Below, piece after piece: positions 6,457 through 53,689 of a stretch of DNA of 56,014 bases. The position numbers and the translations under genes are program-made. The notes beneath the pieces are model-generated. The model did no database searches, had not been told where the DNA came from, and was given only the letters and a program-made list of their open reading frames with translations. The DNA is from Alphaproteobacteria bacterium. GTDB lineage: Bacteria; Pseudomonadota; Alphaproteobacteria; Rs-D84. Every line of letters begins with the position of its first letter. Position 1 is the first letter of the stretch. The stretch covers positions 1 through 56,014 of the forward strand of contig JAGCYJ010000004.1 in assembly GCA_017960855.1 (NCBI GenBank), written 5' to 3'.

Positions 6457-6459
6457 TTT

Positions 6460-7233: not shown

Positions 7234-7324
7234 TTTATCCTTCCGTTATAGTATAAGATAAAAAAAACACCGGTGTTGGTCAAGATATAAAATAAAAACG
7301 CCGTAAAAACAATGTATAATTAAA

Positions 7325-7340
7325 TATTTCATATGAAATA
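7325..7340. promoter_or_regulatory. Perfect 16 bp palindrome TATTTCATATGAAATA (distant parS-like)
   Basis: Self-complementary 16-mer in the AT-rich rsmG-parA spacer. It matches the TGTTTCACGTGAAACA consensus at 12 of 16 positions. Confidence 0.25.
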
Positions 7341-7422
7341 AAAACACAACGATTCGTTTTTGTTTTTATGCAAAACCATTGGTTGTGATTTATAAATATA
7401 CTAAAATCAATGTAATATGGTA

Positions 7423-7438
7423 TGTTTCATGTGAAATA
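7423..7438. promoter_or_regulatory. Candidate parS centromere site TGTTTCATGTGAAATA
   Basis: Matches the canonical parS TGTTTCACGTGAAACA at 14 of 16 positions. It lies between rsmG and parA, a typical parS location. Confidence 0.45.
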
Positions 7439-7444
7439 TAAAAA

Positions 7445-8005
7445 TTATTTTGTGATAATTGTTATAAAACCATCGCCGGTTTTTGATGGAATTAATTCAT
7501 ATTTGAATTTGTATTTTTGTTTTGCGGTCGCAATTTCAGATTCTATTTCCCGGCCTTTTAATAAAAAAAGCCGGCAATTTTTTGATTTTGTGTAATCTAA
7601 TATTTTGACCAATGGTGCAAACGCACGTGCGGTGAATACAAAATGTGAAGAATCAGCCGGCATTTGCCGGACAAAATCTTCTACGCGACCATGATATATT
7701 TCCAAGTTTTTTATTTTTAATTCGTCTTTTACAGCAGATAAAAATGAAACTTTTTTGCCGATTGATTCAATGCATGTGACGCGCCAACCTAAAAGAGATA
7801 ATACGACACCTGGGAACCCTGCACCGCTGCCAAGATCAATGATATGAACATTTTTAGGCAAGACATCGGCCAACTGGGCGGAATCGGCAAAGTGCCGCGT
7901 TTCAATGTCGGAAAGCGTGCTGGGGGCAACAAGATTCATGCGTCCCGACCATTCACGCAACATTTCGGCATAGCGATTAAAATTAACTTTATTATTCATG
8001 AACAA
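7445..8005 (-). CDS. rsmG: 16S rRNA (guanine527-N7)-methyltransferase RsmG/GidB
   Basis: LREWSGRMNLVAPSTL...HFADS...IIDLGSGAGFPGVVLS. It sits upstream of parAB, which is conserved synteny. Confidence 0.85.
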   Translation of the reverse strand: MFMNNKVNFNRYAEMLREWSGRMNLVAPSTLSDIETRHFADSAQLADVLPKNVHIIDLGSGAGFPGVVLSLLGWRVTCIESIGKKVSFLSAVKDELKIKNLEIYHGRVEDFVRQMPADSSHFVFTARAFAPLVKILDYTKSKNCRLFLLKGREIESEIATAKQKYKFKYELIPSKTGDGFITIITK

Positions 8006-22720: not shown

Positions 22721-24997
22721 ATGGCTGAACAGTTCAAGATTTTATCCGCGGGGGGCAAAGGTAAGGGGCTGAATATTTTTAATTCGGCATCTTACAAGGA
22801 ACACGAACGCATACCTATGGCGCGCATATTTTGGGAGTTGCGCTGGGTCATTGGTATATGGTTGATTTGTGCGGTGGCATTTGGTTTCTCGTTTATATTG
22901 GAACATGTTTGGCGTTATGGCTGGAATATTGCAAGTGGTGTTTGGACGCGGATATATCTGTATAACGCTTTTGCAACACTTGGAATGTCTGTGGTTGCGG
23001 AAATACCAGGATGGTTGTGGCGGTGCTTGCTTTATACCGATATGGCGTGTATGGCGCCACTATTTCCGATAATCGCATATTACTTTATGGCGGACAGCGA
23101 ATTGGTCAAAGAATTTAATCCAAACGGTAAAGACAAACTGGATGAAAAATCTTCGCGCAAGGCAACCGCCGAAGATATTAAAAAAATGGGACAAAACTTT
23201 AAAAACAAAGAAGGTTTGTTCAATGGTTTTATGATGGTTCTGGGGTATTTCAAGGACAAAGGGAAAAACCGACCATTGATGTTTGATGAATCTTTGTCTG
23301 CGTTGTGTTTGGCGCCTCCGGGAACCGGTAAAACCGCCGGTGTTGTTGTTCCAACAATTCTGGAATGCAATAACGTTTCAATGATTATAAATGACCCGAA
23401 ACCCGAATTAAAACAGAAAACGTCTGCGTATCGTGCGAAAATAGGGCCAGTGTTTATTATGAACTGGGCGGGTCAGGATGATCCAGCGCGCGGTATTTAT
23501 TATCCGTCTTGGAACCCATTGTCACCGGAACACGTACCATTTAATTCGGAACAACGCGATTTGTACATTGATACGATTTGTAATGTGTTGGTGCCGGATG
23601 CAACGGGATCTTCGGCTGATCCGCACTGGACAATAACTGGTCGTGCCGCATTGTCGGGTATGGTTCATTTTATTGTGTCCAAGGTTGAACGTGCCAAGGC
23701 CAATGATTATTTCTATTCTCGTCTTAAAAGCGGAACATTTAACGCAGATGATGCAGCGGTATTAAGTGATTATTACCTGTCTATGATGGACGATCCAAAT
23801 GCTTATGCAGCATTGGCGATTTTGAAACGTAATGAATTGACGGTTGATAATTATGTTCATGTTGGAACGTGGGAAAATATCCCACCTGCTTGGGTCGGAC
23901 GCGAAGCATCGCTTTCTATGATTCTAGATTGGTTGAATGCGGCGCAAATTTCCATTGCAAATGAATTAGAAGAACGTCGTCGTGCCGGTGATCAAATGGT
24001 CATGATGGAAGATAATTTGCAAAAACTGTTTTTGAATGCAGTTGATGAAGCGCGCAGATATTCGTATTCTCATCGTGCTGTTTTGGAATTGACCCAGTTG
24101 GCAAATACACCGGACAAGGAACGCGGATCCATCATATCAACCGCATTGTCTGGGTTGTCCATATTCCGTAATTCTGCGGTGCGTAATAGAACCAGCCATT
24201 CTGATTTTCACTTTTCAGATTTGCGTGGTATGGTTGACCCACGTGATGGACAGATTAAACCTGTTTCTGTATATTTGTCGGTAAATATGGTTGATGCCCA
24301 GGCGTTAAATCCGATTACCGGTATATTCATTGAATTGATGTCTAATTTCTTGCTGGCTAATGCACCAGATTCCGAACATGATGGTAAAAAGATGGGACCG
24401 TATCCGGTACTTTTTGTGTTGGACGAAATGCCAAAAATGCAAAAGTTGCAGGCGGTTATCCAAGGGCCCGATTTGGGACGTGGGCAAAAGATTTCTTACC
24501 TGATTATCGGTCAGGATATTCACCAAATTCGTGAAAAGTATGGTGCCGATGCGGCCGATACAATTATATCAACCACCGCGGCAAAAATCGTGTTGCGTCA
24601 AAATGACCCTGAAACAGCACGACGTTTCTCGGATATGATGGGTAAAAAGATTGAAATGAAAAAGGTCAAGGGACCCGACGGTAAAGAGACGGAAGAAAAG
24701 AAGGAATCATTGTTGTATTCTGAAATGGACATTATGAAACTGGAAGACAGTAAGCAGTTAGTTATTTACCAGGGATTCTATAATCGTCCAATAGAAGCAT
24801 CACAAGAAAGATATTTCTTGAATAAGACACCGATACAGCAAGAATTGTATGCCAAGGTTTCTATGGGTGAATCGTCGCCGTTGCCAGAGTTCTTGATACC
24901 ATCGCATCATGCGATAATGGGTTATTCGGGTAACCCGCGTATGTATAACCCAGCCACAGGTGAATTGGTAGAGTTTGTAAGCAATAACAAGCAATAA
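22721..24997 (+). CDS. Type IV secretion coupling protein (VirD4/TraG/DotL-like T4CP)
   Basis: N-terminal TM helices, Walker A LAPPGTGKTAGVVVPT, a long all-alpha insertion, Walker B-like VLFVLDEMPKMQKL, then IIGQDIHQIREKYG and KIVLRQNDPETA, typical of TraG/VirD4 NTPases. The start could be later (M at 22817). Confidence 0.7.
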   Translation: MAEQFKILSAGGKGKGLNIFNSASYKEHERIPMARIFWELRWVIGIWLICAVAFGFSFILEHVWRYGWNIASGVWTRIYLYNAFATLGMSVVAEIPGWLWRCLLYTDMACMAPLFPIIAYYFMADSELVKEFNPNGKDKLDEKSSRKATAEDIKKMGQNFKNKEGLFNGFMMVLGYFKDKGKNRPLMFDESLSALCLAPPGTGKTAGVVVPTILECNNVSMIINDPKPELKQKTSAYRAKIGPVFIMNWAGQDDPARGIYYPSWNPLSPEHVPFNSEQRDLYIDTICNVLVPDATGSSADPHWTITGRAALSGMVHFIVSKVERAKANDYFYSRLKSGTFNADDAAVLSDYYLSMMDDPNAYAALAILKRNELTVDNYVHVGTWENIPPAWVGREASLSMILDWLNAAQISIANELEERRRAGDQMVMMEDNLQKLFLNAVDEARRYSYSHRAVLELTQLANTPDKERGSIISTALSGLSIFRNSAVRNRTSHSDFHFSDLRGMVDPRDGQIKPVSVYLSVNMVDAQALNPITGIFIELMSNFLLANAPDSEHDGKKMGPYPVLFVLDEMPKMQKLQAVIQGPDLGRGQKISYLIIGQDIHQIREKYGADAADTIISTTAAKIVLRQNDPETARRFSDMMGKKIEMKKVKGPDGKETEEKKESLLYSEMDIMKLEDSKQLVIYQGFYNRPIEASQERYFLNKTPIQQELYAKVSMGESSPLPEFLIPSHHAIMGYSGNPRMYNPATGELVEFVSNNKQ

Positions 24998-38983: not shown

Positions 38984-39676
38984 TTAACGCACCGGCGAAA
39001 TACGGATTTCAACGCGACGATTGGTCAGCCGGCCAATGTCATCCTGGGCGGCGATGGGACGTGCCGCACCACGACCAACCACAAATAACCGCTGGGGAAT
39101 AATTCCGTGTTGGGTCAGACATACCGCAGTGCGTGATGCCATGTCGCCAGATAATGCCGCTGCTGCACGTGTGTCGCGCATTGCGTCGGTATAGCCGGCA
39201 ACTTCTATGAAGGTTGCGTCGTATTTTTTCAATATCTTTGAAATTGTTTTTAATGTATCCGCCCCATCTGCTGAAATATCGGCGATGTTTAATTCCATTA
39301 TTGCGTCGCGCACTAAAATAACAACGACATCTGTGCCGGCACGCTGGACAGAAATGCCGGGCTTGCGTAAAGCATCATACAGTGCGAATTCCAATTCGGA
39401 CATATAAGCCACCGCCAATGCGTTGTCATTTGTTGTTTTGTCGCCATATTCTGATTTTGCGTTTGGTTCAGCGGTTTGACTAATTGTTCGACCACCTGCA
39501 CCCAAAAGTACAGGTTTCTTTGCGACACGTGATGTTTCGGTCATATCACCAAAACTGGCACCACGCAGATAGTTTGGCCATGTGCTGCGTTCTGGACTGT
39601 GATAAGTTGCACACCCAATCAGTGTGGCACAAATGAATACTGAAAAAACGCAAATAAATTTTTTCAATTTATTCAA
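38984..39676 (-). CDS. OmpA/MotB-C-domain lipoprotein
   Basis: Lipobox LIGC and a C-terminal OmpA-like domain (FIEVAGYTDAMRDTRAAAALSGDMASRTAVCL...GRLTNRRVEIRI). Its start overlaps the end of the upstream pilin gene by 8 nt. Confidence 0.7.
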   Translation of the reverse strand: MNKLKKFICVFSVFICATLIGCATYHSPERSTWPNYLRGASFGDMTETSRVAKKPVLLGAGGRTISQTAEPNAKSEYGDKTTNDNALAVAYMSELEFALYDALRKPGISVQRAGTDVVVILVRDAIMELNIADISADGADTLKTISKILKKYDATFIEVAGYTDAMRDTRAAAALSGDMASRTAVCLTQHGIIPQRLFVVGRGAARPIAAQDDIGRLTNRRVEIRISPVR

Positions 39677-40127
39677 CTATGAATGAAACTTGGTTTGTAT
39701 TTGTTGAAAAGCAACCCGATGTATTATTGGGTTCTTGACCGTTGATTAAAACGGCCGTTGCCCATTCTTGCTTTTTAACCGCAAAATATTCGCATTCGCC
39801 TGATGACAACCCGTTCAAACTAATGATGAAAGATTTTTCATCAAAACTTGGTGATACAGACCAATCATCGCTGCCGATTGGTGCCTTGGCAGATTTTAAT
39901 GCGCCCGCCTTTATCAAATATTCAACCGAAATGCCAGCATATGAATTGCGTGGTCCAGCAAGCAGTTTTACATTTTTTGCCAGTTGTTCTAGTTCGGTGG
40001 ACACTAAACTGCGTGTTTGACTTGCGCGGATTTGACCGTACATTTTAACAGCCGCCACAGAAATAATTGTGCCGATTGCCAACACCCCGATGATTTCTAT
40101 CAAGGAACGACCAGATTCTTGTTTCAT
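39669..40127 (-). CDS. Type IV pilin / pseudopilin-like protein (152 aa precursor)
   Basis: Class III leader MKQESG|RSLIEIIGVLAIGTIISVAAV with Glu at +5, a hydrophobic alpha1 helix, and a C-terminal Cys pair (SGECEY...SGCFS). SD gggggg lies upstream of the ATG at 40127, 20 nt after the dnaX stop. Confidence 0.65.
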   Translation of the reverse strand: MKQESGRSLIEIIGVLAIGTIISVAAVKMYGQIRASQTRSLVSTELEQLAKNVKLLAGPRNSYAGISVEYLIKAGALKSAKAPIGSDDWSVSPSFDEKSFIISLNGLSSGECEYFAVKKQEWATAVLINGQEPNNTSGCFSTNTNQVSFIVE

Positions 40128-41676: not shown

Positions 41677-41750
41677 GCTAAAACTTCCTTTTGGGAAAAG
41701 CATAGCAAACCGCATTCAAATTTCAACAACAAATATATCGCGTAAAACGA

Positions 41751-42047
41751 TTATTTAAGGTTTTCAATAAAGTCCGGTAATGGAATTTCTTCGTCTTCGG
41801 AAGAATCAACAGATTCCGGTGGAACATCTGGGATTTTGTCATTTGCACCACGCGAAGAATCAATCTTTTCTTGTTCGGCGTTTACAATACGACCATAGTG
41901 TTCAGCCGCTTGCAACAAGCGTTCGCGTTCAATTTCGTCAGATGTCTGACGCGCTTGGTCAATATATTGTTTTCTTTTCTGGCGCCATTTATGACAGCGC
42001 TGGATCATTTGCCCAACATTAGACGTTTGATTTTTTTTGTTTTGCAT
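41751..42047 (-). CDS. Small basic/acidic protein, DUF4167-like
   Basis: 98 aa. RQKRKQYIDQARQTSDEIERERLLQAAEHYGRIVN resembles the conserved alphaproteobacterial DUF4167 core, followed by an acidic tail. Confidence 0.35.
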   Translation of the reverse strand: MQNKKNQTSNVGQMIQRCHKWRQKRKQYIDQARQTSDEIERERLLQAAEHYGRIVNAEQEKIDSSRGANDKIPDVPPESVDSSEDEEIPLPDFIENLK

Positions 42048-42140
42048 GTTCTTTCTTTTTATACAAGGAAAACATTATTGCGGATTTTTACCATCGTCCG
42101 CGCTCTAAACATATCCAATATTAGTGTATCTTAAAACTGA

Positions 42141-42169
42141 TTGCAATATTTTTTTTCAATTGCTATTCT
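42141..42169 (+). promoter_or_regulatory. Sigma70-like promoter of the giant-pilin operon (TTGCAA-17 nt-TATTCT)
   Basis: TTGCAA at 42141-42146 and TATTCT at 42164-42169, followed by SD taggaggg (42178-42185) and TTG at 42192. Confidence 0.4.
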
Positions 42170-42191
42170 GACGGGTGTAGGAGGGAATCTT

Positions 42192-43550
42192 TTGCGAACG
42201 GAACGCGGGAACTTTTTATTACAAGCGTTATTGGCGCTGACGTTGCTGTTCGCGTTCATTCCCTTTATTGCGACAAAACTTTTGGGGCGCGAAAATGATG
42301 CTATGATGTATTCTACAACGCGTCAAATTGATAATGCGACAACCGCGGCGCGTATATATGTTCGTGAAAATGCGAATAATTTACCGTATGAACGCACAAT
42401 ACTTTCGGGTAATTCTTTTTCCGATACGCTGGAAGCATATGGTTTGCCGTTGGGTTTTGTTCCAAAAACAGCACTGGGACAGGATATCTCGCTTGTTATC
42501 GATAAAGATACAGAATCTGTTTCGGCTTATTTGGAATTAAAGGGTGGAAAACTAAATAGGCTGAAACGGGCTGAATTGGTGCGTCGTATCGGTTTTTATG
42601 CAGCGGATGCTGGCGATGAAACGGTACATGTTGGAATTGTTTTAGACGATATGTATTCTGATGTTGTGCGTCGCAATGAAACAAATGTTGATGCGGGCGC
42701 ATTTTTGGTTGATTTGGATATGGGCGGTTTTGAATTGTCTGGTGCGGGGCGTATTTCAACGCGCCGTGGCGAATTTGATGGTGCGGAAATTGGGTTGCTT
42801 ACCATAAATGGTGTAGAAGCGGGACGCAAGGTACGAAACAATATTTCTGTTATGGTTGCGGATAAAACAATATTTCAATCACAGACAGGTGAAAGCGCGC
42901 TTACATTGACACGTGGTTCGTTGATTGTGGGTGGCATAAATGGAAAAACGATATCGGCTTATGGTGATACGGGGAACATAACAACGAACAATGCAGCGGT
43001 TTATAATTTTTCTATGACGGCTGGGCGAACTGGGTTCAGTGGACCGCCGAAATGGAATATTCATGGTGATGTTGTCACCAGTAAAATAAATTTTAATGTA
43101 GAAAGATTGGATGTTAGTTCGTTTATAAATGTCGCGCGCGGTCAAGATGCGTATATTGAATCTGACGAGATAGAATACAGCAGCAGCAGCGGTATTGACA
43201 CAAATGTAATTCATACATCAAACATAACGTTACGCGACCAGACATCTGATGCTTTGTCGCGTGGCGGTTCGGGCGCGGTGGTGTTGGATATTCGTCCGGC
43301 GGGAACATCTTTGTTGCCCGATGCGCTGGTTTCAACGATTGATAATGGAACATTTGAGATACTTGCAAAACCATCAGATAGTGGTGCAAATACGGTTGAT
43401 TGCAAAACGATAATTTCGTCATTACAGGGTGTTTATAATCAACATTCTTTGTCGCAATATCTGATATGCCAGTATGTTTATTGGCAACGGTTGGAAAAAA
43501 GAATAGATATTAAACAATGTTTATTGGCAGGAAGAAGTGGCTGTATTTAA
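42192..43550 (+). CDS. Giant pilin-like protein A (452 aa), prepilin-type N-terminus lacking Glu5
   Basis: A TTG start 6 nt after aggaggg gives MRTERG|NFLLQALLALTLLFAFIPFI (Gln at +5). The internal motif FLVDLDMGGFELSGAG is shared with the next two genes. The C-terminus is Cys-containing. Confidence 0.55.
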   Translation: MRTERGNFLLQALLALTLLFAFIPFIATKLLGRENDAMMYSTTRQIDNATTAARIYVRENANNLPYERTILSGNSFSDTLEAYGLPLGFVPKTALGQDISLVIDKDTESVSAYLELKGGKLNRLKRAELVRRIGFYAADAGDETVHVGIVLDDMYSDVVRRNETNVDAGAFLVDLDMGGFELSGAGRISTRRGEFDGAEIGLLTINGVEAGRKVRNNISVMVADKTIFQSQTGESALTLTRGSLIVGGINGKTISAYGDTGNITTNNAAVYNFSMTAGRTGFSGPPKWNIHGDVVTSKINFNVERLDVSSFINVARGQDAYIESDEIEYSSSSGIDTNVIHTSNITLRDQTSDALSRGGSGAVVLDIRPAGTSLLPDALVSTIDNGTFEILAKPSDSGANTVDCKTIISSLQGVYNQHSLSQYLICQYVYWQRLEKRIDIKQCLLAGRSGCI

Positions 43551-44760
43551 AACAAAAATTTTTGATGAAACAAATCGTGGTGCCAGTGTGCTTGAGGTCA
43601 TATTGTCTATGGCCATTGTCGCCATGGCTGCGCCACTGGTTTATTCACAGATATCTGAAACAAATCGCAATATTCGTGATATGGCAACTGCGCATAATAT
43701 AACAGAATTGCGGGGTGGCGTGTTAAACTTTATTCGTTTGAACCAAGACGAATGGCCAGATGTTGCACAAATTCGTATGACTGATGAAGAATTGGAAATA
43801 ATTTCCGAAGGTGCGCATGCGGGCTTTATAGATAAATACGGTACACACGGAACAACAATTACGGATGTGTATTTGGCATTTAACATAGATTCACCGATGT
43901 TGCGTGTTGCAAATATTGCACATCATATTGGTGAAGATGCTGCTATTGTTGGTGCGGATGGCATCGCATATGGTCGTACATGGGCGGTTAGTGCGCCGGA
44001 ATTTAATCAGGGTGATTTGATATACCGCATATCACGCAGTACGTTTGGTGAAGATAACACTAAATATTTACATCGTGGCACATCAGGCGATGATGATTTA
44101 AATGTTATGCATCGCGATTTGAATATGGGCGGAAATGACATGTTAAGTGTTGGTGGTGTTTCGGCGGCCGCAGTACGAATCCAAGATGCAACGGCGACAT
44201 TTGTTAAAAGTGAAGATTTGGTTGCGCAATCAATATATTTTTCCAATGGCGCAAATTTGACGGGTGGTGATGTATCTATTGATTCTTTGCGTGTGACTGG
44301 TGATATTATCGGGTTTAGAAATATATATGCCGATAACTTAAATGGGGCAAATTATACGACATCTGGTCGAATTATTACCGATCGTGCAACCGTGACTAAT
44401 TCTGTAAATGTCGGACGAGAGTTTGTGTTGAAATCTGATTCTGCCCGTACAATAAGTGGTTTCACCGGTATTAAATCAGGTTCTGTTTATACGTCATATT
44501 TGACAACAGACGAAATTATATTTTACGAAGATTTTGGACTTACCGTATCTGGCGAATTGATGGTATCAACTAATAACAAACCGTTAAAATTGGGTAATTG
44601 GTCGTTCCCATCAACAACGCCACCTACTTTTTCTGTACTGAATCTGACACGCGCAACAACACCAAAGATGCCAAGTAAATCAGAATTTGGTGTTTTGATG
44701 ACAAGCGATTGGCAAACATATGTTCCGCCACAAGCAGTTGGGGGGCCAAATGAGTTTTAA
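43537..44760 (+). CDS. Giant pilin-like protein B (407 aa), prepilin-type N-terminus with Glu5
   Basis: A GTG start gives MAVFKTKIFDETNRG|ASVLEVILSMAIVAMAAPLV. The internal motif KYLHRGTSGDDDLNVMHRDLNMGGNDMLSVGG is PilV/shufflon-N-like. It overlaps gene A by 14 nt. Confidence 0.6.
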   Translation: MAVFKTKIFDETNRGASVLEVILSMAIVAMAAPLVYSQISETNRNIRDMATAHNITELRGGVLNFIRLNQDEWPDVAQIRMTDEELEIISEGAHAGFIDKYGTHGTTITDVYLAFNIDSPMLRVANIAHHIGEDAAIVGADGIAYGRTWAVSAPEFNQGDLIYRISRSTFGEDNTKYLHRGTSGDDDLNVMHRDLNMGGNDMLSVGGVSAAAVRIQDATATFVKSEDLVAQSIYFSNGANLTGGDVSIDSLRVTGDIIGFRNIYADNLNGANYTTSGRIITDRATVTNSVNVGREFVLKSDSARTISGFTGIKSGSVYTSYLTTDEIIFYEDFGLTVSGELMVSTNNKPLKLGNWSFPSTTPPTFSVLNLTRATTPKMPSKSEFGVLMTSDWQTYVPPQAVGGPNEF

Positions 44761-44782
44761 TTGTCGTATCTTTTCAAATCGT

Positions 44783-46066
44783 ATGTCGCAGCATGGTGGT
44801 ATGCTGGTTGAATTGTTGATGAGTGTCGCGATTGTTGCGGTTGTTTTGCCGTTCTTGTTCCGGTACCAAGAAGATTCAATAATGCGTGTTGAAAATATTG
44901 CTGTGGCGCGTCAAATGCAAGATGTGCAAAGTGCACTGGAACGTTATATTATAACGAACCGCGATAAATTGCTGACGGTTGCGGGTAAATCTATAAAACG
45001 CGTTGATATTGACGAATTGTTGCCGTATGGGATTCCGGAAAGTATAGCAGAAGATCATTCAGATAAATACCAGTTGCGTATATTGAAATCGTCTGATGCC
45101 ACGGGGCAGGCAACGCTTCAAGGTGTTGTTATTATGAACGATGATTCAATATCACCAATGCGTACGCGTGAAATAGTTGCGGTTGGTGGCAGTGATATGG
45201 GATTTGTCGAAGGAACACATGCATACGGAACATTTGGTGCGTGGCACGCGGATACAATTGATTTAGGTATAGAAGCAACCAATGGCATTGTTGGAACGAC
45301 GGAGGTAAATCGTGATAATGCGTTATACCTGTGGCGTGTTCCATCAGAAGATTCGTCAGATGCAACAATGTTGAGTGCGTTAAGTTTGGGCGGGCATGAC
45401 ATAGTAAATGTTTCAAAATTGAGTACTGTGGCCGCTGGATTTGATGAAACTTTGCAATCTATCAGTGTTGCTGCGGACAAGGTTGTTTTTACCAGTCGTA
45501 CTACTATTGACAGTGCGTTTGAAACCAAAAACGCGACCTGTGTTGGTTCGTTGTCTGCTGATGCTAAAACAATGGAAGTTGCCGGTGCATTAACATTGTC
45601 TGATTTGGGAAAGTTTTCCAGTTTTAATACCGCGAATTTGTGGGTGACCAACTTGGAATTATCTGGTGTTTCCATCGCGGACACAAGCAAAGTGACCGTT
45701 TTAGATATCAATCAAGCATTGGATATGACGGGTGGGCGTATAAGTGCATTATTTACGACTGTGAGTTTCGCGGGGTCTATTACACCGCGCTTGGTTGTTC
45801 ATAACAGAATAGAAGATTCTGTTCAATCTGGTTTTTATTGGGATTTTAAAAGCAATGCCGCAAACTTTGCTGATCTTTCATTGGTGGAATTAAATCGTAT
45901 GGCTACATTGGCGACCAAGAAAGAGGGCAACTCTTCTACTGTCACGACACAGGTTTTTGGTGCCGTTGTCGCAAACCCAAATGCAACCGCGGCTGATTTT
46001 ATGAACGCAATAAACGAAATCCAAACAAAAGTGCGTGCGAAATATCGCCTGTTGAATTTGGAATAA
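44783..46066 (+). CDS. Giant pilin-like protein C (about 427 aa), prepilin-type N-terminus with Glu5
   Basis: MSQHG|GMLVELLMSVAIVAVVLPFLF. The internal motif is ALYLWRVPSEDSSDATMLSALSLGGHDIVNVSKL. An alternative start at 44750 overlaps the stop of gene B. Confidence 0.6.
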   Translation: MSQHGGMLVELLMSVAIVAVVLPFLFRYQEDSIMRVENIAVARQMQDVQSALERYIITNRDKLLTVAGKSIKRVDIDELLPYGIPESIAEDHSDKYQLRILKSSDATGQATLQGVVIMNDDSISPMRTREIVAVGGSDMGFVEGTHAYGTFGAWHADTIDLGIEATNGIVGTTEVNRDNALYLWRVPSEDSSDATMLSALSLGGHDIVNVSKLSTVAAGFDETLQSISVAADKVVFTSRTTIDSAFETKNATCVGSLSADAKTMEVAGALTLSDLGKFSSFNTANLWVTNLELSGVSIADTSKVTVLDINQALDMTGGRISALFTTVSFAGSITPRLVVHNRIEDSVQSGFYWDFKSNAANFADLSLVELNRMATLATKKEGNSSTVTTQVFGAVVANPNATAADFMNAINEIQTKVRAKYRLLNLE

Positions 46067-46086
46067 ATTATGGTATAAATGAAATC

Positions 46087-46596
46087 ATGAAAATAAAATG
46101 CGATTTTTGTAAGACAGAATATTCGGTGGATAAATCACCGACTACACCGGTAAAGTGTGCGGTTTGTGGTCATGTTTGGACCGCAACAACCCCGACACAT
46201 CGTGGTGCGTGGATGATGTTTATTGCGTCCCTGTGTGCGTTATTGTCGGCGGCGGTTTTTGCAACTGCCGTAATTGTGCGTTCAAAGATAGAAAATGCGA
46301 ACAAACAACCGATTGTTGCGCAACTTACAGAAATTAAAACAGTTACTGATGATAACGGTGTTCCACGGTTTTCTGTTCGTGGCGCGATTATAAACCAATC
46401 AACAGAAATATATGGCGTGCCTGATTTGGTGGTTGTTTCACGTGATGCGTCGGGGCGTGAAATTGCGCGTCAAAAGTTTATGCCATCGGCAACATTAGTG
46501 GAAGCAGGTGCATCTGTTGAATTTTATCATGTTTTAAGTACTGCGACCGATGGGGTAAAAAAGATAACTGTTGAATTACAAACGGGGGATAAGTAA
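46087..46596 (+). CDS. ZitP-like protein: MJ0042-type zinc ribbon + TM + DUF3426-like domain
   Basis: MKIKCDFCKTEYSVDKSPTTPVKCAVCGHVWTA (CxxC...CxxC), TM MMFIASLCALLSAAVFATAVIV, and a C-terminal beta-rich domain. Confidence 0.6.
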   Translation: MKIKCDFCKTEYSVDKSPTTPVKCAVCGHVWTATTPTHRGAWMMFIASLCALLSAAVFATAVIVRSKIENANKQPIVAQLTEIKTVTDDNGVPRFSVRGAIINQSTEIYGVPDLVVVSRDASGREIARQKFMPSATLVEAGASVEFYHVLSTATDGVKKITVELQTGDK

Positions 46597-47075
46597 TGAA
46601 AAAGTTTTTAGCCACTTTGGGTATTGTGTTATGTACATTTGGTGCATCTTTTGCCGATACAACGCCACCACCACCGGCACTGGTTCGTAGGGTTAGTATT
46701 TTTTCAACCAGTACTGATTGGCAGGCGATAACAGGTTTGCTTTTGAACGAATACCGCGGAAGTTTTAAGCCAGATTCTAAACTTATTGGAACCAAAGGGT
46801 TGGAACTGTATTATTTGGACGGTTTCCCATGCTATGGTTTGGGTGAAGGTGTTCGTGTTTGGTTGGGACCAAATAACAAGCATGATGGGGAATTGCGTAT
46901 CGCTTGTGTCTATGCGCCGGAAACAATAAACTTTTCATGGCGAAATGCCACCCGTGATGCTGATGATGGTACGGGTACTGGTTTGATTACATGCCCAGTT
47001 GATGCCGATGGTCGCGATTTGACGATTGATTTATCAAAGTGCGACAAGGGCAAAGATTGGGACGAATATAGATAG
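46596..47075 (+). CDS. Small secreted hypothetical protein (159 aa)
   Basis: Signal peptide MKKFLATLGIVLCTFGASFA, a PPPP stretch and several Cys. Its start overlaps the preceding stop (TAATG). Confidence 0.5.
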   Translation: MKKFLATLGIVLCTFGASFADTTPPPPALVRRVSIFSTSTDWQAITGLLLNEYRGSFKPDSKLIGTKGLELYYLDGFPCYGLGEGVRVWLGPNNKHDGELRIACVYAPETINFSWRNATRDADDGTGTGLITCPVDADGRDLTIDLSKCDKGKDWDEYR

Positions 47076-47083
47076 GTTTTGTT

Positions 47084-48040
47084 GTGTTGCGTGAATTTGT
47101 CGTTGATGATTTAAATGCTGGGGTGCGCTTGGACAAGTTTTTGGTGGGCGTAATGCCAGAGTTTTCACGCAGTGAAATCCAAAAGTTTACTGTTTTGCGT
47201 GCTGGGGTGCCGGTGCGCTTTTCCGATCGTGTGAAAAGTGGCGACAAAATATCTGTGGAAATACCAGATGCGCCAAAAACAACGGTTGCAGCAGACAATA
47301 TTTCTTCGGATTTTGATTTGGACATTTTGTACGAAGACGACGATATTATCGTGATAAACAAACCGCGTGGTGTCGTGATGTACCCGTCTGCGGGAAACAA
47401 AACGGGAACATTGGTTCAAAATATTTTGGCACATACCCCATTGGCATCGGCGGGTGGCGCAATACGACCGGGGGTGGTGCACCGTTTGGACAAAGATACC
47501 AGTGGCGTTATGGTTTTTGCGAAATCTAATGCGGCATACAATGGTTTGGTGAAAACTTTTATGGCGCATGATTTAACACGAAAATATGTCGCGTTTGTTT
47601 GGGGCGTTCCGAATTGGGAAACGGCAACAATTACGGGTAATATTGCGCGTTCTTCACGCAATCGCCAAAAAATGAGCATGGTAAAGAGTGGTGGCAAACC
47701 AGCAACAACTTTGGTGGCGGTTATGGATACTTGGGGTCGTGCGGGGGTCAGTGCGTTTCGTTGCACATTATTGACGGGTCGCACGCATCAAATTCGTGTT
47801 CATTTATCGGCACATGGTTTCCCAGTTTTGTGTGATACGGTTTATGGTCGTACTGGTGCACGATTGGGCTCGGTCAAGAACGCAGATTTGTTGGATTTCT
47901 TGAAAACACATAATGGTCAAATGTTGCATGCAGAGGTGCTTGATTTTGTGCATCCAGTAACGGGTGAAAAAATGCATTTTCGTGCCCCACTGCCCGACGA
48001 TATGGTCGAATTAAAATATTTGCTTGATAATTTTAGTTAA
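47084..48040 (+). CDS. rluD: 23S rRNA pseudouridine synthase, RluD/RluA family
   Basis: GTG start, S4-like N-terminus (RLDKFL...SRSEIQK), then ILYEDDDIIVINKPRGVVMYP...VHRLDKDTSGVMVFAK...GRTHQIRVHL. Confidence 0.85.
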   Translation: MLREFVVDDLNAGVRLDKFLVGVMPEFSRSEIQKFTVLRAGVPVRFSDRVKSGDKISVEIPDAPKTTVAADNISSDFDLDILYEDDDIIVINKPRGVVMYPSAGNKTGTLVQNILAHTPLASAGGAIRPGVVHRLDKDTSGVMVFAKSNAAYNGLVKTFMAHDLTRKYVAFVWGVPNWETATITGNIARSSRNRQKMSMVKSGGKPATTLVAVMDTWGRAGVSAFRCTLLTGRTHQIRVHLSAHGFPVLCDTVYGRTGARLGSVKNADLLDFLKTHNGQMLHAEVLDFVHPVTGEKMHFRAPLPDDMVELKYLLDNFS

Positions 48041-48066
48041 TCTGTGTGATTTCATTACTTTTTCAT

Positions 48067-48094
48067 TTGTCTAAATCTGAAAATATGTTATAAT
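48067..48094 (+). promoter_or_regulatory. Extended -10 promoter for the Cys-rich protein P1 gene
   Basis: TTGTCT at 48067-48072, a 16 nt spacer, and TGtTATAAT at 48086-48094. Confidence 0.4.
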
Positions 48095-48120
48095 AAAATA
48101 ACAATAATGGAGTGAGACAA

Positions 48121-51100
48121 ATGCATTTCTTCAATAAAACGATTGGTTTAATGGCTGTTTTGTGCGCTATGCCGGCGGCGTTTGCTGCGACTGCGCGTCC
48201 AAGTATAGTTTCTGCAACTGTTGGTTCGCGTATGCCGACGATGGTTGTAAAGACATCCACCGCCAGCAGTACCAGTACAACGACAACATCTTCTGCGTTG
48301 CTTGCAAACGCAGAATGTATTGATGCGTACACCGAATGTATCAAGGACGCAGATTCCTGTGGTGAAAACTTTGAAGAATGCACAAATAAGGTCTTGTTCC
48401 ACGGAAAAATGCCAAACTGCTTGGGTACATTGGCACAATGTTCCACGTCTGGTGTAAACAGTTTGTTTGGAACATCAAATATTTCCGCTTTGTCTAATAT
48501 CGCGACTAAAAACACTTATGGCGAAGTGACCGATTATACATACCCGACCGATGGCAGTGTTTTGGGTCAAATGATAACTGCAGCGGCGATTTCTAATCGT
48601 TATGACACTTCAACCTGTGTTCGCCGTTATACATCGTGTTTGCGTAAAGATACTGTTTGTGGCGATGATTTTGAACTTTGCACAACGAACAAAGAATTCC
48701 GTAAGCAACGCGTATTTTGTGATTCAACATTGGCGCGTTGCCAATCTGATGGTGTGATTGAATTATTGGGTTCGTCAAATCGTACCGCAATGCCAACTGC
48801 GTCATCTCGTATTGGTGAAATGATTACCGAAGGTGCGGCATTGGCGGCAATTGCGTCCGTTTCCACATGCTATAAGGTTGTTGAACAGTGCTTCCTTGGT
48901 GCGTGTGCGGCAAACCCGTACAAGTGCTATGAAAACAGCAACCAATCTGTTGTTGAAATTGTTGAAGCAATCAACAATGGTACAGAAATCACAACCGAAA
49001 TGGTTGATGGTGTAATCAACAAATCGTCCATTTCTTCTTACCTGAAGAACAGTTGTTTGGACACAATTGGTTCAAACAAGTATTGTTATGCGACATTCTT
49101 GGGCAATGGCCAGATGCCAACAAATGCCCAGTTGCGTGATGAAGATAACCAAGAAGAAATATTTGATTTGGCATATTCGTCCCGTATGAATGACGCGATG
49201 AAGGCAAAGATTGCCGACTTGGTTGATAAATTTGATACCAAGGCAAAGCAGAAATGTACCGAAACAATTAAATCTTGCGCAATGCGTGTTTGTGGTGGTG
49301 GTGTTGGCTCGGCATGCTATGCGGCGGTGTTCGGTAATTCCGATAAAAGTATCAACGGTGCGGCTACATACGAAGAAATCAAGACGGGTTGTGCGCCAAT
49401 CGTCAATACCGATACATATTGCAAATATGCGGCGGCGAATCCAAATTCAACGGGTACATATTCTTATACATATATAAATCGCGAAGCATTTGATGTTTTG
49501 TTCCCAGAATATGACAATGGTGCTGAAATTGATGCAATTGGCGTTGTTGCATCTTTGAATTCTGCGTTGGCAACAAATTACAGCGATGCCGCAATTGCCC
49601 AGTTGAAAAAACAATGTCAATCAGTGGCCAGCAGCTGTGTTAAATCTATGTGCGGATCTGACTATGTCAATTGCTATCGCACACGTACCGATGTTGCGTC
49701 CAGTTTGACAAACACCGGCAACAGCACATTTGATGCATCCATGAACAAGGTTGGTGGTGTGCTTGATTACACAATCGTTTTGGGCTTGTGCTTGGACACC
49801 GTTAAAAATGCATCTGTTTGTGAAGAACACTTGGCGATTGAAGCGAACAAGATAAAAATCGCAGAGAAAGGTACATCTTCTTGGGGCGATGCGACATCTG
49901 TCCGTGAAGGTTGGATTGATGCAGGTGCAACTACAAAAATCACTGGTGAAACAGAAACAGTTGCGCTGACCGATGCGTATGGCAACAAGTTGTGCAGAAC
50001 CCAAGATGGCGACGAAGGTATCTGCTATACAGTAAGCGAAAGCGGCAAAGTGTATGATATTGAAGAAACAATAGATTACACCACATATGTCCAGAACCAA
50101 GCGGCTTCTACTTTGTTCAAAGATTTAATCTATGACATTGAAAAAGAAGCCCAGGCAAAATATAACTCTAAACTGACACATGAACAACAAATGTGCTATT
50201 CTGCAAATTCGGGTGGTATCGTTGGTAATAAAGATATGGGCAGCACATTTATGTGGGCTAAATTGAACGGTAACCGTGTTCCAAAAGATTACACTGTCAA
50301 TGGTTTGAAACAAACCGCGTTCAAGGCCAGCAACGATTTGTACGGTTCGTTCTGTCGTGTGCGTGTGACATTGCAATCTGATGATAAAAAGATTCAGGAT
50401 GCGATAAAGGGTAAATCTTGGAACACAGCATACTTTGCAGTTGGTGATTCGTTCACATGTGGTTCTTGGATTCCAGACGATGAATTGGAAGATTTGGCAA
50501 ATGCTGCGGCCGGCAAGGCAACCGAAGGTATGGCCGCGGATCAGAAACGTCTGCGCACATGGACAACGATTTTGGGCGCATTGGGCGGCAGTTTGGGCGG
50601 ATATGAATTGGGCGAAAGCATCCGCAAAGGCAAAGCATTAACTGGTTTGACTAAATGGAATACCACAAAAATGCAGTCCAAGAAAGATTTACAGGAATCA
50701 TGTGTAAGAATTGTAAATGCTTTGACTAATGATGATGCAAAACAACTGTATGATCATTCTGGCGACCTTTATAATACAGCCAGTGAGTTGCTGGGCAATA
50801 CAACGGATATGACTACATTAAATACTGCAAGAGAAGCGTTGTGGAATGCGTATATAAAGTGCTTGAATGACAAGACCAATAACCCCTGTGTTGCAGAAAG
50901 TGAGCTAGCAAAAGCAAAAAGCGAAGTTAGGTTAGTAGCCGGCAGAATCAAAAACGCGTGCAATAGTGCGGATATCAAGGATTCCGACGATGGTAAATCA
51001 CCTTGGTGGACAGTGGCCAGCACAATCGCATTGGGTACGGGTGGCGCATTGTTGGTGAACAAGGCAACACGCGATATTCAAAATTCTGAATTGTCCGCAG

Positions 51101-51216
51101 CCGAAAAAGCGGCATACGAAGAATGGATGAACAGTGTTGGTCGTCATGTTTCCTGCTATATCGGCGCAGATGAAGCCGGTAACTATGGCGATGTAATTAC
51201 AACCAGTTTGGAATAA
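48121..51216 (+). CDS. Giant secreted cysteine-rich protein P1 (1031 aa) with C-terminal hydrophobic segments
   Basis: SD ggag 8 nt before the ATG at 48121. Signal peptide MHFFNKTIGLMAVLCAMPAAFA, an S/T-rich linker, and about 40 Cys by my count, arranged in recurring C-x6-C-x4/6-C-x4-7-C modules. There are two hydrophobic segments near the C-terminus (TWTTILGALGGSLGG, WWTVASTIALGTGGALLV). Confidence 0.6.
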   Translation: MHFFNKTIGLMAVLCAMPAAFAATARPSIVSATVGSRMPTMVVKTSTASSTSTTTTSSALLANAECIDAYTECIKDADSCGENFEECTNKVLFHGKMPNCLGTLAQCSTSGVNSLFGTSNISALSNIATKNTYGEVTDYTYPTDGSVLGQMITAAAISNRYDTSTCVRRYTSCLRKDTVCGDDFELCTTNKEFRKQRVFCDSTLARCQSDGVIELLGSSNRTAMPTASSRIGEMITEGAALAAIASVSTCYKVVEQCFLGACAANPYKCYENSNQSVVEIVEAINNGTEITTEMVDGVINKSSISSYLKNSCLDTIGSNKYCYATFLGNGQMPTNAQLRDEDNQEEIFDLAYSSRMNDAMKAKIADLVDKFDTKAKQKCTETIKSCAMRVCGGGVGSACYAAVFGNSDKSINGAATYEEIKTGCAPIVNTDTYCKYAAANPNSTGTYSYTYINREAFDVLFPEYDNGAEIDAIGVVASLNSALATNYSDAAIAQLKKQCQSVASSCVKSMCGSDYVNCYRTRTDVASSLTNTGNSTFDASMNKVGGVLDYTIVLGLCLDTVKNASVCEEHLAIEANKIKIAEKGTSSWGDATSVREGWIDAGATTKITGETETVALTDAYGNKLCRTQDGDEGICYTVSESGKVYDIEETIDYTTYVQNQAASTLFKDLIYDIEKEAQAKYNSKLTHEQQMCYSANSGGIVGNKDMGSTFMWAKLNGNRVPKDYTVNGLKQTAFKASNDLYGSFCRVRVTLQSDDKKIQDAIKGKSWNTAYFAVGDSFTCGSWIPDDELEDLANAAAGKATEGMAADQKRLRTWTTILGALGGSLGGYELGESIRKGKALTGLTKWNTTKMQSKKDLQESCVRIVNALTNDDAKQLYDHSGDLYNTASELLGNTTDMTTLNTAREALWNAYIKCLNDKTNNPCVAESELAKAKSEVRLVAGRIKNACNSADIKDSDDGKSPWWTVASTIALGTGGALLVNKATRDIQNSELSAAEKAAYEEWMNSVGRHVSCYIGADEAGNYGDVITTSLE

Positions 51217-51270: not shown

Positions 51271-51299
51271 TTGCTAGAACATGTTTTTTATGTTAAAAT
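51271..51299 (+). promoter_or_regulatory. Extended -10 promoter for the P2 gene (TTGCTA-17 nt-TGtTAAAAT)
   Basis: TTGCTA at 51271-51276 and TGtTAAAAT at 51291-51299. SD aagagag lies upstream of the ATG at 51317. Confidence 0.4.
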
Positions 51300-51316
51300 T
51301 AAAGGTAAGAGAGAAT

Positions 51317-53689
51317 ATGAAATATCTTGCCAGATTTTTGTTGGCGGTGCTGTGTGTCGTGCCTTTTGGCGCGCAGGGTTCTAATGTTCCGACAACGCGT
51401 GGAAATAATTTAACCGCGTATAATGGCGCATCGGGTTCAACAAATAATAATAACTGGAACGCGTTGATGAATGTGCGTTCGGGTTCTGATGCGGCTGATA
51501 TGCCGGTTGCTGATTTTGGTAATTGTAATGCGATTGTTTTGCGCTGTGCACAACCGAAGTGCGCGAATGGCGGTTGTACAGATATGAATATTGCCGCGAC
51601 AATCGTAAATGGCTGTGTGCAATCTAACGAAGCGTGTAAAGAATATGGCGACGATTTAATTGGGTATATTGCGGCGCAATTGGTGGCTAATTCCACCGCC
51701 AAGGCAAATGCTGCACAAAATGCCGCTGCCCAGGCCGCTGCGGAACAAAACGCCCAGCAAATGCAACAAATGCAGGCGCAAATGCAACAACAGATGCAAC
51801 AAATGGCGGCACAAAATGCCGAAACCGTTGCACAATTACAAAGTGCGCTGGATGAACAAAAACAAATGACTGCCCAGGCAATCGCAGATGCCACTGCATC
51901 GCGTTCCGCGCCGGTTGCAACAACGACCACAAGCAGCAGTTCAAATAACGATTTAACAACGCAACAACAAGCGGCGGCGGGCGCATTGACCACCGCACAA
52001 CAAATAGCAGCGCAAAACGGTGTTTCGCCGGATATTTTGGCACGTGAACAGATTACCGGTCAAATCATGTCATCGCTTGAAAATGCGGAAACACAGTTAA
52101 AAACATTAAAAACCACAATGGCAGACACGTTTGAATACGCGGGTTGTGATACAAAGGGTTCTAATTGTACCGGTCCAAAACGGGTAAAGGTTTTTAAACA
52201 AAAGGCAATGTCGTTCTTTGACCCGTATGAAAATGTTTTGGACGAATTGTATGACGCTTTAATTACTGCCCAGGCGGTTGGTGTTGACATTACTGATATC
52301 TACATGATGCTGAATGGTTCATGCAATGTGTGGGGAAAATATCTGTGTAATTTAGGGGCGACCATCAAAGAAAGAGTTTGTGATGAACCTATTGTAACAG
52401 TAGTTGGCACAGGTATTTCTGTTACATGTAAGGATAATTTGTACCACTATGAGACAAGGGTAAAAAATACGGATACTTACGATGATACTTCGTGTCCAAA
52501 TAATACCAGGTCTGTGCAATCTGGTCGCGCCCGTGGCGGACATGAATGTATCCAGGGTCAAGTGATACCCCCAGAAGATGATATTGCATGCACATTGCAA
52601 AAAATGATTGTTGACAGTGATGATGACCCAGTGCAACGTGATTGGTTGTGGAATGAAACAGATGAAGAGGGATCAAATATTCGTGTCGGTTGTGCATCGT
52701 CTGCACTGGAAGCATCTAAATTCTTCCGTAATCGTAAAAAGGGTACAAATCTGGACATAGAAATTTTGGAACGCATTGTGGAACAAGATGCGCCAAGTTC
52801 CTTTGGGGCTATTTGGGGAAATAGCAACAATACCACATCACCAAAGCCAGATGGTGTAAAGTACTGTGCTGTAAGCGGTGATACAATCGGTGAATTGGAA
52901 AAAATAGTTTCATTAAAAACACTGCCGAAACCCGTGTGTGTAAAAGATGGTAGTTTAGAACAAATATTCAATGACGATAATGGCAAGGTGACCACGTCGA
53001 ATGGTATGGATTGCGAAAATGACGATAATAATCGTATAAATCCGCTAATCGCACTGTGTTCAACACATGTCTATAATATTGGTGAAGCGCAAAATCAATC
53101 TGATGAATCGCGTAAACAACAGATGCGGCAAGTTATTGCTTTAAAGACAACATTTATGACGCAACAGATGTATAAGCAATACGAATACATGGAAACGATG
53201 ATTCGTCGGTTTAAAACCCAATTGGAAAAAGCAGTTTTGACAACTAAACTTCAGGCCGCCAGTGGTGGCAACACCAGTGGTTCGTCATCTTCTTCAACAG
53301 GCGGTTCTGTGTCCGGTGGTTCGGTACAGCGTAGTCGTGATGTCTATGCCGTCGTTGATGGTGCTCAAGATTGTAATTTAATTGAAACAGGAACCGCAGA
53401 TGCTTTGCAGTGTGTTCAAGGAAATATAACCGCCGCACTTAGAGCATTGGACGAAGGTAAAAACGCCGAAGCAAGAAGACAACTGCAAAAAGATTTAGAA
53501 GTAGCAAAAAGATATGGTAGAAGTTATAACGATGATTTAAAAAATAATAAAGTTACGAGTTGCAATACAATAGCATCCAGTTCAAATCCATCAACATTAC
53601 GCACCTGTGCATACGATTTGCGTTCCGCGGTGGCGCTTGCGATAACCAAGTATAATAATGAGTCAAGTCGCACGCGCGCCACACCATAA
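51317..53689 (+). CDS. Large secreted cysteine-rich protein P2 (790 aa) with a Q/M/A-rich low-complexity region
   Basis: Signal peptide MKYLARFLLAVLCVVPFGAQG, the module NCNAIVLRCAQPKCANGGC matching P1 modules, the AQNAAAQAAAEQNAQQMQQMQAQMQQQMQQMAAQ stretch, and about 25 Cys by my count. Confidence 0.6.
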   Translation: MKYLARFLLAVLCVVPFGAQGSNVPTTRGNNLTAYNGASGSTNNNNWNALMNVRSGSDAADMPVADFGNCNAIVLRCAQPKCANGGCTDMNIAATIVNGCVQSNEACKEYGDDLIGYIAAQLVANSTAKANAAQNAAAQAAAEQNAQQMQQMQAQMQQQMQQMAAQNAETVAQLQSALDEQKQMTAQAIADATASRSAPVATTTTSSSSNNDLTTQQQAAAGALTTAQQIAAQNGVSPDILAREQITGQIMSSLENAETQLKTLKTTMADTFEYAGCDTKGSNCTGPKRVKVFKQKAMSFFDPYENVLDELYDALITAQAVGVDITDIYMMLNGSCNVWGKYLCNLGATIKERVCDEPIVTVVGTGISVTCKDNLYHYETRVKNTDTYDDTSCPNNTRSVQSGRARGGHECIQGQVIPPEDDIACTLQKMIVDSDDDPVQRDWLWNETDEEGSNIRVGCASSALEASKFFRNRKKGTNLDIEILERIVEQDAPSSFGAIWGNSNNTTSPKPDGVKYCAVSGDTIGELEKIVSLKTLPKPVCVKDGSLEQIFNDDNGKVTTSNGMDCENDDNNRINPLIALCSTHVYNIGEAQNQSDESRKQQMRQVIALKTTFMTQQMYKQYEYMETMIRRFKTQLEKAVLTTKLQAASGGNTSGSSSSSTGGSVSGGSVQRSRDVYAVVDGAQDCNLIETGTADALQCVQGNITAALRALDEGKNAEARRQLQKDLEVAKRYGRSYNDDLKNNKVTSCNTIASSSNPSTLRTCAYDLRSAVALAITKYNNESSRTRATP

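Follow-up and report, generated by a model that had tools for sequence, protein, structure and literature searches.

In the type II secretion system (T2SS), three different minor pseudopilins encoded in tandem, GspI-J-K (XcpV-W-X), form one tip complex, and GspK lacks the Glu at position +5. The large minor pilins of the CofB/TcpB class consist of a pilin domain and bulky C-terminal domains, and they are proposed to sit at the pilus tip and to prime assembly. CofB-type type IVb minor pilins are homotrimers, as summarized in PMC9045228 from Kawahara 2016. PilV, in turn, is a minor pilin adhesin of type IVb pili with a constant part and a part varied by a shufflon (PMC9045228). In Caulobacter crescentus, ZitP joins a zinc ribbon, a transmembrane segment (TM) and a DUF3426 domain, the last of which is needed for polar pilus biogenesis (PMC5182065, PMC5182063). 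Here we analyze a locus of three tandem genes, A (42192-43550), B (43537-44760) and C (44750-46066), together with the genes around it, in a stretch of 56,014 nucleotides (nt) (contig JAGCYJ010000004.1, positions 1 to 56,014 of the forward strand, assembly GCA_017960855.1), referred to below as the window. The DNA comes from an Alphaproteobacteria bacterium of the Rs-D84 lineage, the order of Candidatus Enterousia, whose genomes are smaller than 1 Mb, lack most biosynthesis and are thought likely to depend on a partner (PMC12306168). A, B and C are very likely PilV-class type IVb minor pilins, and the set they form is best filed as a diverged, chromosomal, shufflon-less and triplicated form of the R64/IncI-type type IVb pilin set.

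The likeness to PilV (of IncI1/IncI2 R64 and TP114 and of the PAPI-1/SPI-7 thin pili; Pfam PF04917, Shufflon_N) covers a class III signal, a length of about 400-480 aa, a divergent C-terminal domain and a homologous N-terminal region of ~230 residues with an LHR...LNxM..DLNMGGN motif. A preliminary description of this DNA had pointed to such a resemblance, and profile searches bore it out. When the window's A, B and C were scanned directly against Pfam and NCBIfam, no family passed its cut-off; the PilV signal was recovered with profiles. A B profile searched against 1.84 billion representative proteins retrieved only 144, among them C-like proteins and five Shufflon_N proteins. As the B profile retrieves C-type proteins, B and C are homologous. 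The five match Shufflon_N with E values from 1e-12 to 4.5e-56; three are above the N_methyl cut-off and a fourth matches that family weakly (E 0.006). One of them (P0246) is encoded in a typical R64-type operon of TcpQ, secretin, PilO, ATPase, T2SSF, PilS, ATPase, PilM and PilV, which adjoins a VirB/Trb type IV secretion system (T4SS).

Comparison of profiles with hhalign gave the same picture. B aligned with the PilV set at 99.6% (E 1.7e-22), and still at 97.3% (E 2.5e-11) once the helix had been removed. The corresponding values for C were 99.3% and 97% (E about 1e-10 to 1e-11), and C 12-229 aligned with PilV 2-229, the whole constant region, at 98.7% (E 1.8e-16). A reached 94% over its full length. 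Among the paralogues, B-C scored 98.9%, A-C 95.5% and A-B 56%. All 941 homologues of A are unnamed. In two more distant lineages, the orthologues in the A position pass or come close to the Shufflon_N cut-off of 27.5 bits: that of L089, 26% identical to A over 487 aa, scores 29.5 bits and that of L088 26.6 bits, and a C-like protein of L089 matches the family at E 3.2e-5. When B was searched by tblastn against 72,556 plasmids, 11 of the top 15 matches, all weak (E 0.09-0.4), lay under annotated pilV tip-adhesin genes and one more under 'Shufflon protein B'.

The shared motif that the preliminary description had pointed out in the three proteins is also real. B and C carry the PilV motif K[YF]LHR...LNxMxxDLNMGGN, which reads KYLHRGTSGDDDLNVMHRDLNMGGNDM in B (residues 176-202, nt 44062-44142) and LYLWRVPSEDSSDATMLSALSLGGHDI in C (residues 192-218, nt 45323-45403). 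In the profile alignment, B KYLHRGTS-GDDDLNVMHRDLNMGGNDM falls on PilV KFLHRAAEPGRPELNTMSTDLNMGANDI. A has DLDMGG at residues 174-179, and the DL[DN]MGG core of A and B can be seen even in the DNA, where 42711-42757 and 44116-44162, encoding DLDMGG (A) and DLNMGG (B), are 70% identical over 47 nt. Judged by sequence, B and C are genuinely homologous to PilV, if distantly, and A is a paralogue that has diverged further. The searches also brought up proteins of 1000-1236 aa (P0221, P0229, P0230, P0235, P0240 and others) with a PilV-like N-terminal region of ~200 aa and the class III signal QKGS/LMVEA; one such giant protein is encoded at L087 2477-5488, near fliL on a short contig.

We then looked at the N termini, which had been read as prepilin peptidase signals. 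Orthologues from about 80 species were compared by means of a motif pattern, so that the counts below are of sequences matched by the pattern; the pattern for B was stricter than the others and matched 71 of 81 orthologues. Gly(-1) was present in every matched orthologue of A (81/82), B (71/81), C (83/84) and a small pilin encoded upstream on the opposite strand, discussed below (75/75 matched). The +5 residue was Gln in A (81/81) and Glu in B (70/71), C (83/83) and the small pilin (75/75), and in a 21-sequence alignment of B, G15, A16 and E20 were invariant. In the window, the leader MRTERG is followed by NFLLQ in A, ...NRG by ASVLE in B, ...SQHG by GMLVE in C and MKQESG by RSLIE in the small pilin. 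B, C and the small pilin thus have the full class III signal (polar leader, Gly, hydrophobic stretch, Glu at +5), and A has it with Gln in Enterousia. Such near-invariance in about 80 species is well beyond chance, and it suggests that the leaders would be cleaved after the conserved Gly. The Gln of A, stressed in the preliminary description, is a feature of the Enterousia clade, because the A-position orthologues of L088 and L089 carry Glu at +5.

Structure prediction, proposed earlier as a check on the pilin reading, was run for B. AlphaFold2 (AF2) with a 58-sequence alignment that included relatives 25-40% identical gave a helix at 18-72 and strands at 77-168, that is, an N-terminal pilin alpha1 helix and a pilin fold over 18-170 with pLDDT about 90. 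An earlier run with 21 close homologues had modelled residues 30-168 only (overall pLDDT 42). In Foldseek searches of the PDB, B models found nothing at E <= 0.001; the sole geometric match was a full-length T2SS minor pseudopilin in the XcpGHIJK model 9a1f_R (TM 0.57, probability 0.96, E 0.097). Sequence searches of the PDB that started from a true PilV or from the B profile turned up no solved relative, and PilV itself has no structure there. On the strength of the model, B has a predicted pilin fold. The C-terminal halves of A, B and C are unrelated to one another, as first noted, with no mutual profile similarity (hhalign probability <3%). That of A ends with four invariant Cys (404, 426, 443, 451). 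In B, residues 228-333 (44218-44535) lie in a region where the family profile weakly matches a phage tail-fibre chain (9cuy_g, E 0.011), which hints at a fibre-like or beta-helical receptor-binding fold.

The preliminary description had taken the three unrelated C-terminal halves to mean alternative tip modules: A, B and C would be interchangeable adhesins, one per pilus, with three hard-wired specificities replacing a shufflon. A common PilV-like N-terminal region with three unrelated C-terminal halves does recall shufflon PilV, with its one constant and one variable part (PMC9045228). Its claim that there is no shufflon also stands, as expected for hard-wired modules: 41700-48100 holds no multi-copy inverted repeats of the sfx kind, and Pfam scans of the window found no Rci recombinase. 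The conservation of the locus, however, fits a fixed complex better. We recovered 84 loci, each reaching 10 kb to either side of a match; 80 come from genomes of different species, and B identity falls as low as 55%. All 84 have the gene order ompA-pilin-dnaX-DUF4167 followed by A-B-C, the zinc-ribbon and secreted-protein genes and rluD. The A-B-C order recurs in three distant lineages, in each of which the triad lies among housekeeping genes; its proteins are of 487, 423 and 544 aa in L088, of 498, 476 and 426 aa in L089, and of 410, 433 and 490 aa in L092, where the triad adjoins VirD4. Copy number and order are therefore fixed, which is not what one would expect of interchangeable parts. 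Across species, the C-terminal halves are conserved as strongly as the N-terminal halves (column identity 0.6-0.8), and they therefore show no sign of diversification. The N-terminal regions, in contrast, have strongly diverged from one another, as the A-B value of 56% illustrates, and this divergence, with the Gln(+5) of A, suggests distinct structural roles. With the number and order of the genes fixed, the orthogroups distinct and the conservation even, three non-redundant subunits of one structure are the better reading, and we consider interchangeable adhesins unlikely.

The small pilin gene (39669-40127, - strand, 152 aa) would provide the shaft of such a structure. Its product matches Pfam PilS at E 0.0018, 10 of 11 orthologues match the same family (best E 2.6e-5), a Cys112-Cys139 pair is conserved, and a PDB profile search lists the toxin-coregulated pilin (TCP) at E 0.035. 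By these matches it is a PilS-like type IVb major prepilin. The statement that no pilus machinery is nearby holds for the 56-kb window, where Pfam scans of essentially all open reading frames (ORFs) found no pilus ATPase, platform, secretin or prepilin peptidase; it does not hold for the lineage. When the loci were queried with the proteins of a plasmid-type pilV operon, PilO (E 1e-16), an assembly ATPase (E 5e-82) and a T2SSF platform (E 2e-42) were found in two Enterousia species, L044 and L057. In L044/L097 and L057, the dnaX-pilS-ompA-skp string runs straight on into the genes for PilO, a PilP-like protein, the T2SSE ATPase and the T2SSF platform, all within about 13 kb of the triad. The resulting ~13-kb region of L044/L097 reads C-B-A and then DUF4167-dnaX-PilS-OmpA-Skp-PilO-(218-aa PilP-like)-ATPase-platform. 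In other species, the PilO, PilP-like, ATPase and platform block lies between lpxC and gyrB, and most species have their pilus genes at two separate loci. Among the best 120 clusters listed, members of the ATPase family show 85-100% identity. Since PilO, a PilP-like protein, a PilQ-type ATPase and a PilR-type platform occur in the genus, the lineage has a type IVb assembly core, one that the window excludes. The R64-type gene set is thus represented by the PilS-like gene in the window and by PilO, ATPase and platform genes in the genus, with neither secretin nor peptidase found in the loci searched.

Two candidates for the remaining parts were rejected. A 218-aa gene after pilV in L085, with its Enterousia homologues, was considered as a prepilin peptidase and proved to encode an outer-membrane beta-barrel protein. 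A 321-aa gene upstream of PilO was considered as a reduced secretin; its product is a beta-barrel-like outer-membrane protein with no secretin match. In L094, genes for a 138-aa lipoprotein (6437-6853) and for a 321-aa beta-barrel-like protein (7004-7969) precede PilO, at the place where R64 has its secretin gene. An outer-membrane beta-barrel family, whose proteins end in ...YRF or ...YKF, is common to the plasmid-type pilV/T4SS island and many Enterousia loci (L085 11522-12178; L044 18249-19316 and 19394-20203; L057 18006-18815, among others).

The gene next to the PilS-like gene encodes an OmpA-family lipoprotein (38984-39676, - strand; OmpA E 3.7e-13), and the first 8 nt of this gene coincide with the end of the pilin gene. 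In the L044/L097 loci, it sits between the pilin gene and skp-PilO-PilP-PilQ-PilR. The lipoprotein may tether the pilus machine to peptidoglycan. T4SS genes are also present in the lineage: VirD4 in the window (22721-24997) and in L092 (12772-14940), and VirB4 in L094 (1-1873), where it lies ~6 kb upstream of PilO, the start of the PilO-R block. By analogy, these VirD4 and VirB4 genes echo the pairing of thin pilus and T4SS in IncI plasmids. As with PilV, the genomes here combine a PilS-like pilin with PilO, a PilQ-type ATPase, a PilR-type platform and a conjugation-type T4SS.

Type IVb systems export soluble proteins such as TcpF and CofJ, and the filament could be mainly a secretion or piston device (T2SS-like or TCP/CFA-III-like), with A, B and C as its pseudopilus tip and the protein encoded at 46596-47075, or another, as its cargo. 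That protein (159 aa, + strand) has a signal peptide, four invariant Cys (79, 104, 133, 149) and no Pfam or NCBIfam family; it is co-encoded in 84/84 Enterousia loci and could be a cargo or accessory of the pilus. In addition, the pilin domain of B finds its best match in the T2SS minor pseudopilin model. However, the secreted protein was not detected beside the triad in the L088, L089 and L092 loci, and no Gsp-type components or secretin were seen in the loci. The homology is to PilV, PilS and PilO rather than to GspH-K: apart from the N-terminal helix of B (XpsI E 0.0025, 17.8 bits against a cut-off of 150), there was no match to GspH/I/J/K, and no gsp genes were seen. The Gsp pseudopilins are also much smaller, and the genes here are of the PilS/PilO/PilQ/PilR type. 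A device mainly for secretion is, on this evidence, improbable.

Type IV filaments serve competence in many bacteria. A pilus taking up DNA as a source of nucleotides, in which A, B and C would be minor pilins of a DNA-binding or initiator kind, would suit Rs-D84, which is without nucleotide biosynthesis (PMC12306168). Against this, PilV/PilS-type pili are known for cell-cell adhesion in conjugation and not for DNA uptake, no ComEA, ComEC or DprA genes occur in the loci examined, and Pfam and NCBIfam scans show A, B and C to be unlike known DNA-binding pilins. We thus find a role in DNA uptake highly improbable. Least probable of all is that A, B and C are not pilus subunits, being bitopic membrane or surface proteins with a pilin-like anchor beside unrelated pilus genes in the relatives: machinery is absent from the window and no prepilin peptidase or secretin was found in the loci searched, but the invariant Gly(-1)/Glu(+5) is hard to explain without processing and filament packing, and the genus also encodes a PilS-like pilin, PilO, PilQ and PilR, whose genes adjoin in two species.

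The reading that we favor, and hold to be reasonably likely as a whole, is that A, B and C are anciently duplicated, fixed PilV paralogues of a chromosomal type IVb pilus working as follows. A, B and C would be made as prepilins and cleaved behind the conserved Gly, and the hydrophobic helix of each would hold it in the inner membrane. Their pilin domains would probably assemble the three proteins into one tip or initiator complex, beneath which the PilS-like subunits (39669-40127) would be polymerized by a PilQ-type ATPase, a PilR-type platform and PilO, all encoded elsewhere in the genome if the genus is a guide. The three unrelated but conserved C-terminal domains would form a composite adhesive head that binds a surface structure of a partner cell or host, and the ZitP-like protein described below may position the machine. 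For the heteromeric tip and its adhesive role, we regard the chances as evenly balanced. The heteromeric tip or initiator complex is proposed by analogy with GspI-J-K and with the homotrimeric type IVb tip pilins (CofB). Three subunits per tip, as in CofB/TcpB, would match the three genes here; in contrast to those homotrimers of one gene, with which no sequence similarity was detected, the heterotrimer is one that we infer.

Several observations weigh against this reading. The window's A, B and C stay below the Pfam cut-offs, B reaching 15.1 bits against 27.5 for Shufflon_N (E 0.017), and the hhalign value for A against PilV drops to 14% once the N-terminal helix is removed, so that the similarity is weak beyond it. 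No A24 prepilin peptidase and no secretin were found in the window or in about 100 loci searched. PilO, the PilP-like protein, PilQ and PilR were seen in relatives of the genus, from which their presence in the window's own genome is extrapolated. The beta-rich C-terminal half of B was modelled with pLDDT of only 55-70 and has no significant structural neighbor, and a survey of Rs-D84 genomes gives type IV pili only for another lineage (PMC12306168). Co-assembly of A, B and C, like any binding target, is something that we infer.

A bolder version is that an obligate hetero-trimeric PilV-type tip (A+B+C, with A as a cap without Glu5) on a chromosomal type IVb pilus latches Enterousia and its relatives onto a partner cell and works with VirB/VirD4 as in IncI plasmids. 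The whole would then be a conjugation-type mating-pair device that an episymbiotic or parasitic alphaproteobacterium has domesticated as its attachment organ, with the ZitP-like protein fixing its position at the pole. We put this forward as a tentative and rather doubtful extension.

The preliminary description went too far in calling this not a described system, since its parts are of the known R64/IncI type IVb kind. What is new is the triplicated, shufflon-less, chromosomal form. Unlike PilV, the proteins here are three fixed tandem paralogues with neither shufflon nor Rci, A has Gln at +5, their genes lie in the chromosome among the housekeeping genes of a genome smaller than 1 Mb, and divergence has taken all three below the Pfam cut-offs. 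Rs-D84/Enterousia are widespread in human and animal guts. A PilS/PilV-type set with ATPase, platform and PilO is a concrete and testable candidate for the attachment apparatus, and a lineage thought to be pilus-less and partner-dependent probably builds a pilus to grip other cells. PilV-class adhesins thus occur outside plasmids and genomic islands, and the fixed three-gene form may help to explain the construction of type IVb tip complexes. Shufflon_N also gains a deep branch here, with about 1,000 proteins for each paralogue. The homologues come from rumen, gut and faecal metagenome-assembled genomes (MAGs) labelled 'Candidatus Enterousia' or uncultured 'Alphaproteobacteria bacterium', and the genes of the pilus set are all annotated as 'hypothetical'.

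The gene downstream of C (46087-46596, + strand, 169 aa) encodes a ZitP-like protein, and the analysis supports the architecture first assigned to it. Its CxxC...CxxC zinc ribbon (Cys 5, 8, 24, 27; Trp31) is of the MJ0042 type and is followed by a hydrophobic stretch at ~41-63, a probable TM, and by a probable DUF3426-like periplasmic domain. The window copy matches Zn_ribbon_4 at E 4.6e-6 and TIGR02098 at 25.1 bits (cut-off 20.9); its DUF3426 score, 15.1 bits, is below the cut-off of 27.7. Within the family, 11 of 11 members match Zn_ribbon_4 and 9 of 11 match DUF3426 (E up to 0.1, best 2.7e-6), and C5, C8, C24, C27 and W31 are invariant. W31 stands four residues after the last Cys, the same placement as the PopZ-binding W35 of ZitP (C31 + 4), and K23 matches R27 of ZitP, before the third Cys; the remaining basic patch is not kept. 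The likeness to ZitP, an alphaproteobacterial protein too, lies in the four-Cys zinc ribbon and the Trp and probably also in the single TM and the DUF3426-like domain. The protein differs from ZitP in its length (169 versus 245 aa) and its very short linker, and the Caulobacter pilus is of the Tad/Cpa type, not type IVb. Its tie to the pilins holds in all 84 Enterousia-type loci and is specific to that clade: in L089 the ZitP-like gene and rluD form a pair on the other strand, some 3 kb away from the triad, and no copy of the ZitP-like gene was detected in the loci of L088 and L092. For this reason the link is suggestive, not established.

A, B, C and the genes for the ZitP-like protein, the secreted protein and RluD form six tightly packed + strand genes at 42.1-48.0 kb. 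The ORF map confirms that A, B and C are consecutive and overlap, with one revision at the start of C. A (452 aa) is also open from 42141, and its TTG start at 42192 is preceded by an AGGAGG box at 42179-42184. A and B (407 aa) share 14 nt; with the start of C at 44750, the overlap between B and C is 11 nt. This start (438 aa) was picked by gene callers on four metagenome contigs with an identical B, where the callers' other starts also agree with those given here. Alternative starts of C lie at 44720 and at 44783; the latter, favored earlier, is possible (427 aa), and both 44750 and 44783 keep the G/xxxxE motif N-terminal. C is separated from the ZitP-like gene by 20 nt, the latter overlaps the secreted-protein gene by 1 nt, and a gap of 8 nt leads to the gene for the RluD-type pseudouridine synthase (47084-48040, + strand; PseudoU_synth_2 E 4.3e-29). 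This last gene is probably co-transcribed with the one before it but is no component of the pilus. Promoter and terminator scans of the locus gave nothing better than shuffled sequence. On the opposite strand, dnaX, the genes for the 152-aa pilin and the OmpA lipoprotein, skp, lpxD and fabZ follow one another in a string. Elsewhere in the window, Pfam scans covering essentially every other ORF brought up housekeeping genes and the VirD4-type coupling protein.

One of the loci, L058 (CAVGNU010000002.1), was deposited as a 'Bacteroides fragilis' bin. It shows the complete Enterousia gene order, and the contig is probably mis-binned. Finally, two large Cys-rich proteins with signal peptides and no family match are encoded after rluD in the window (48112-51216, 1034 aa; 51281-53689, 802 aa). 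The 1034-aa protein is conserved downstream in most loci, and both may be surface proteins.

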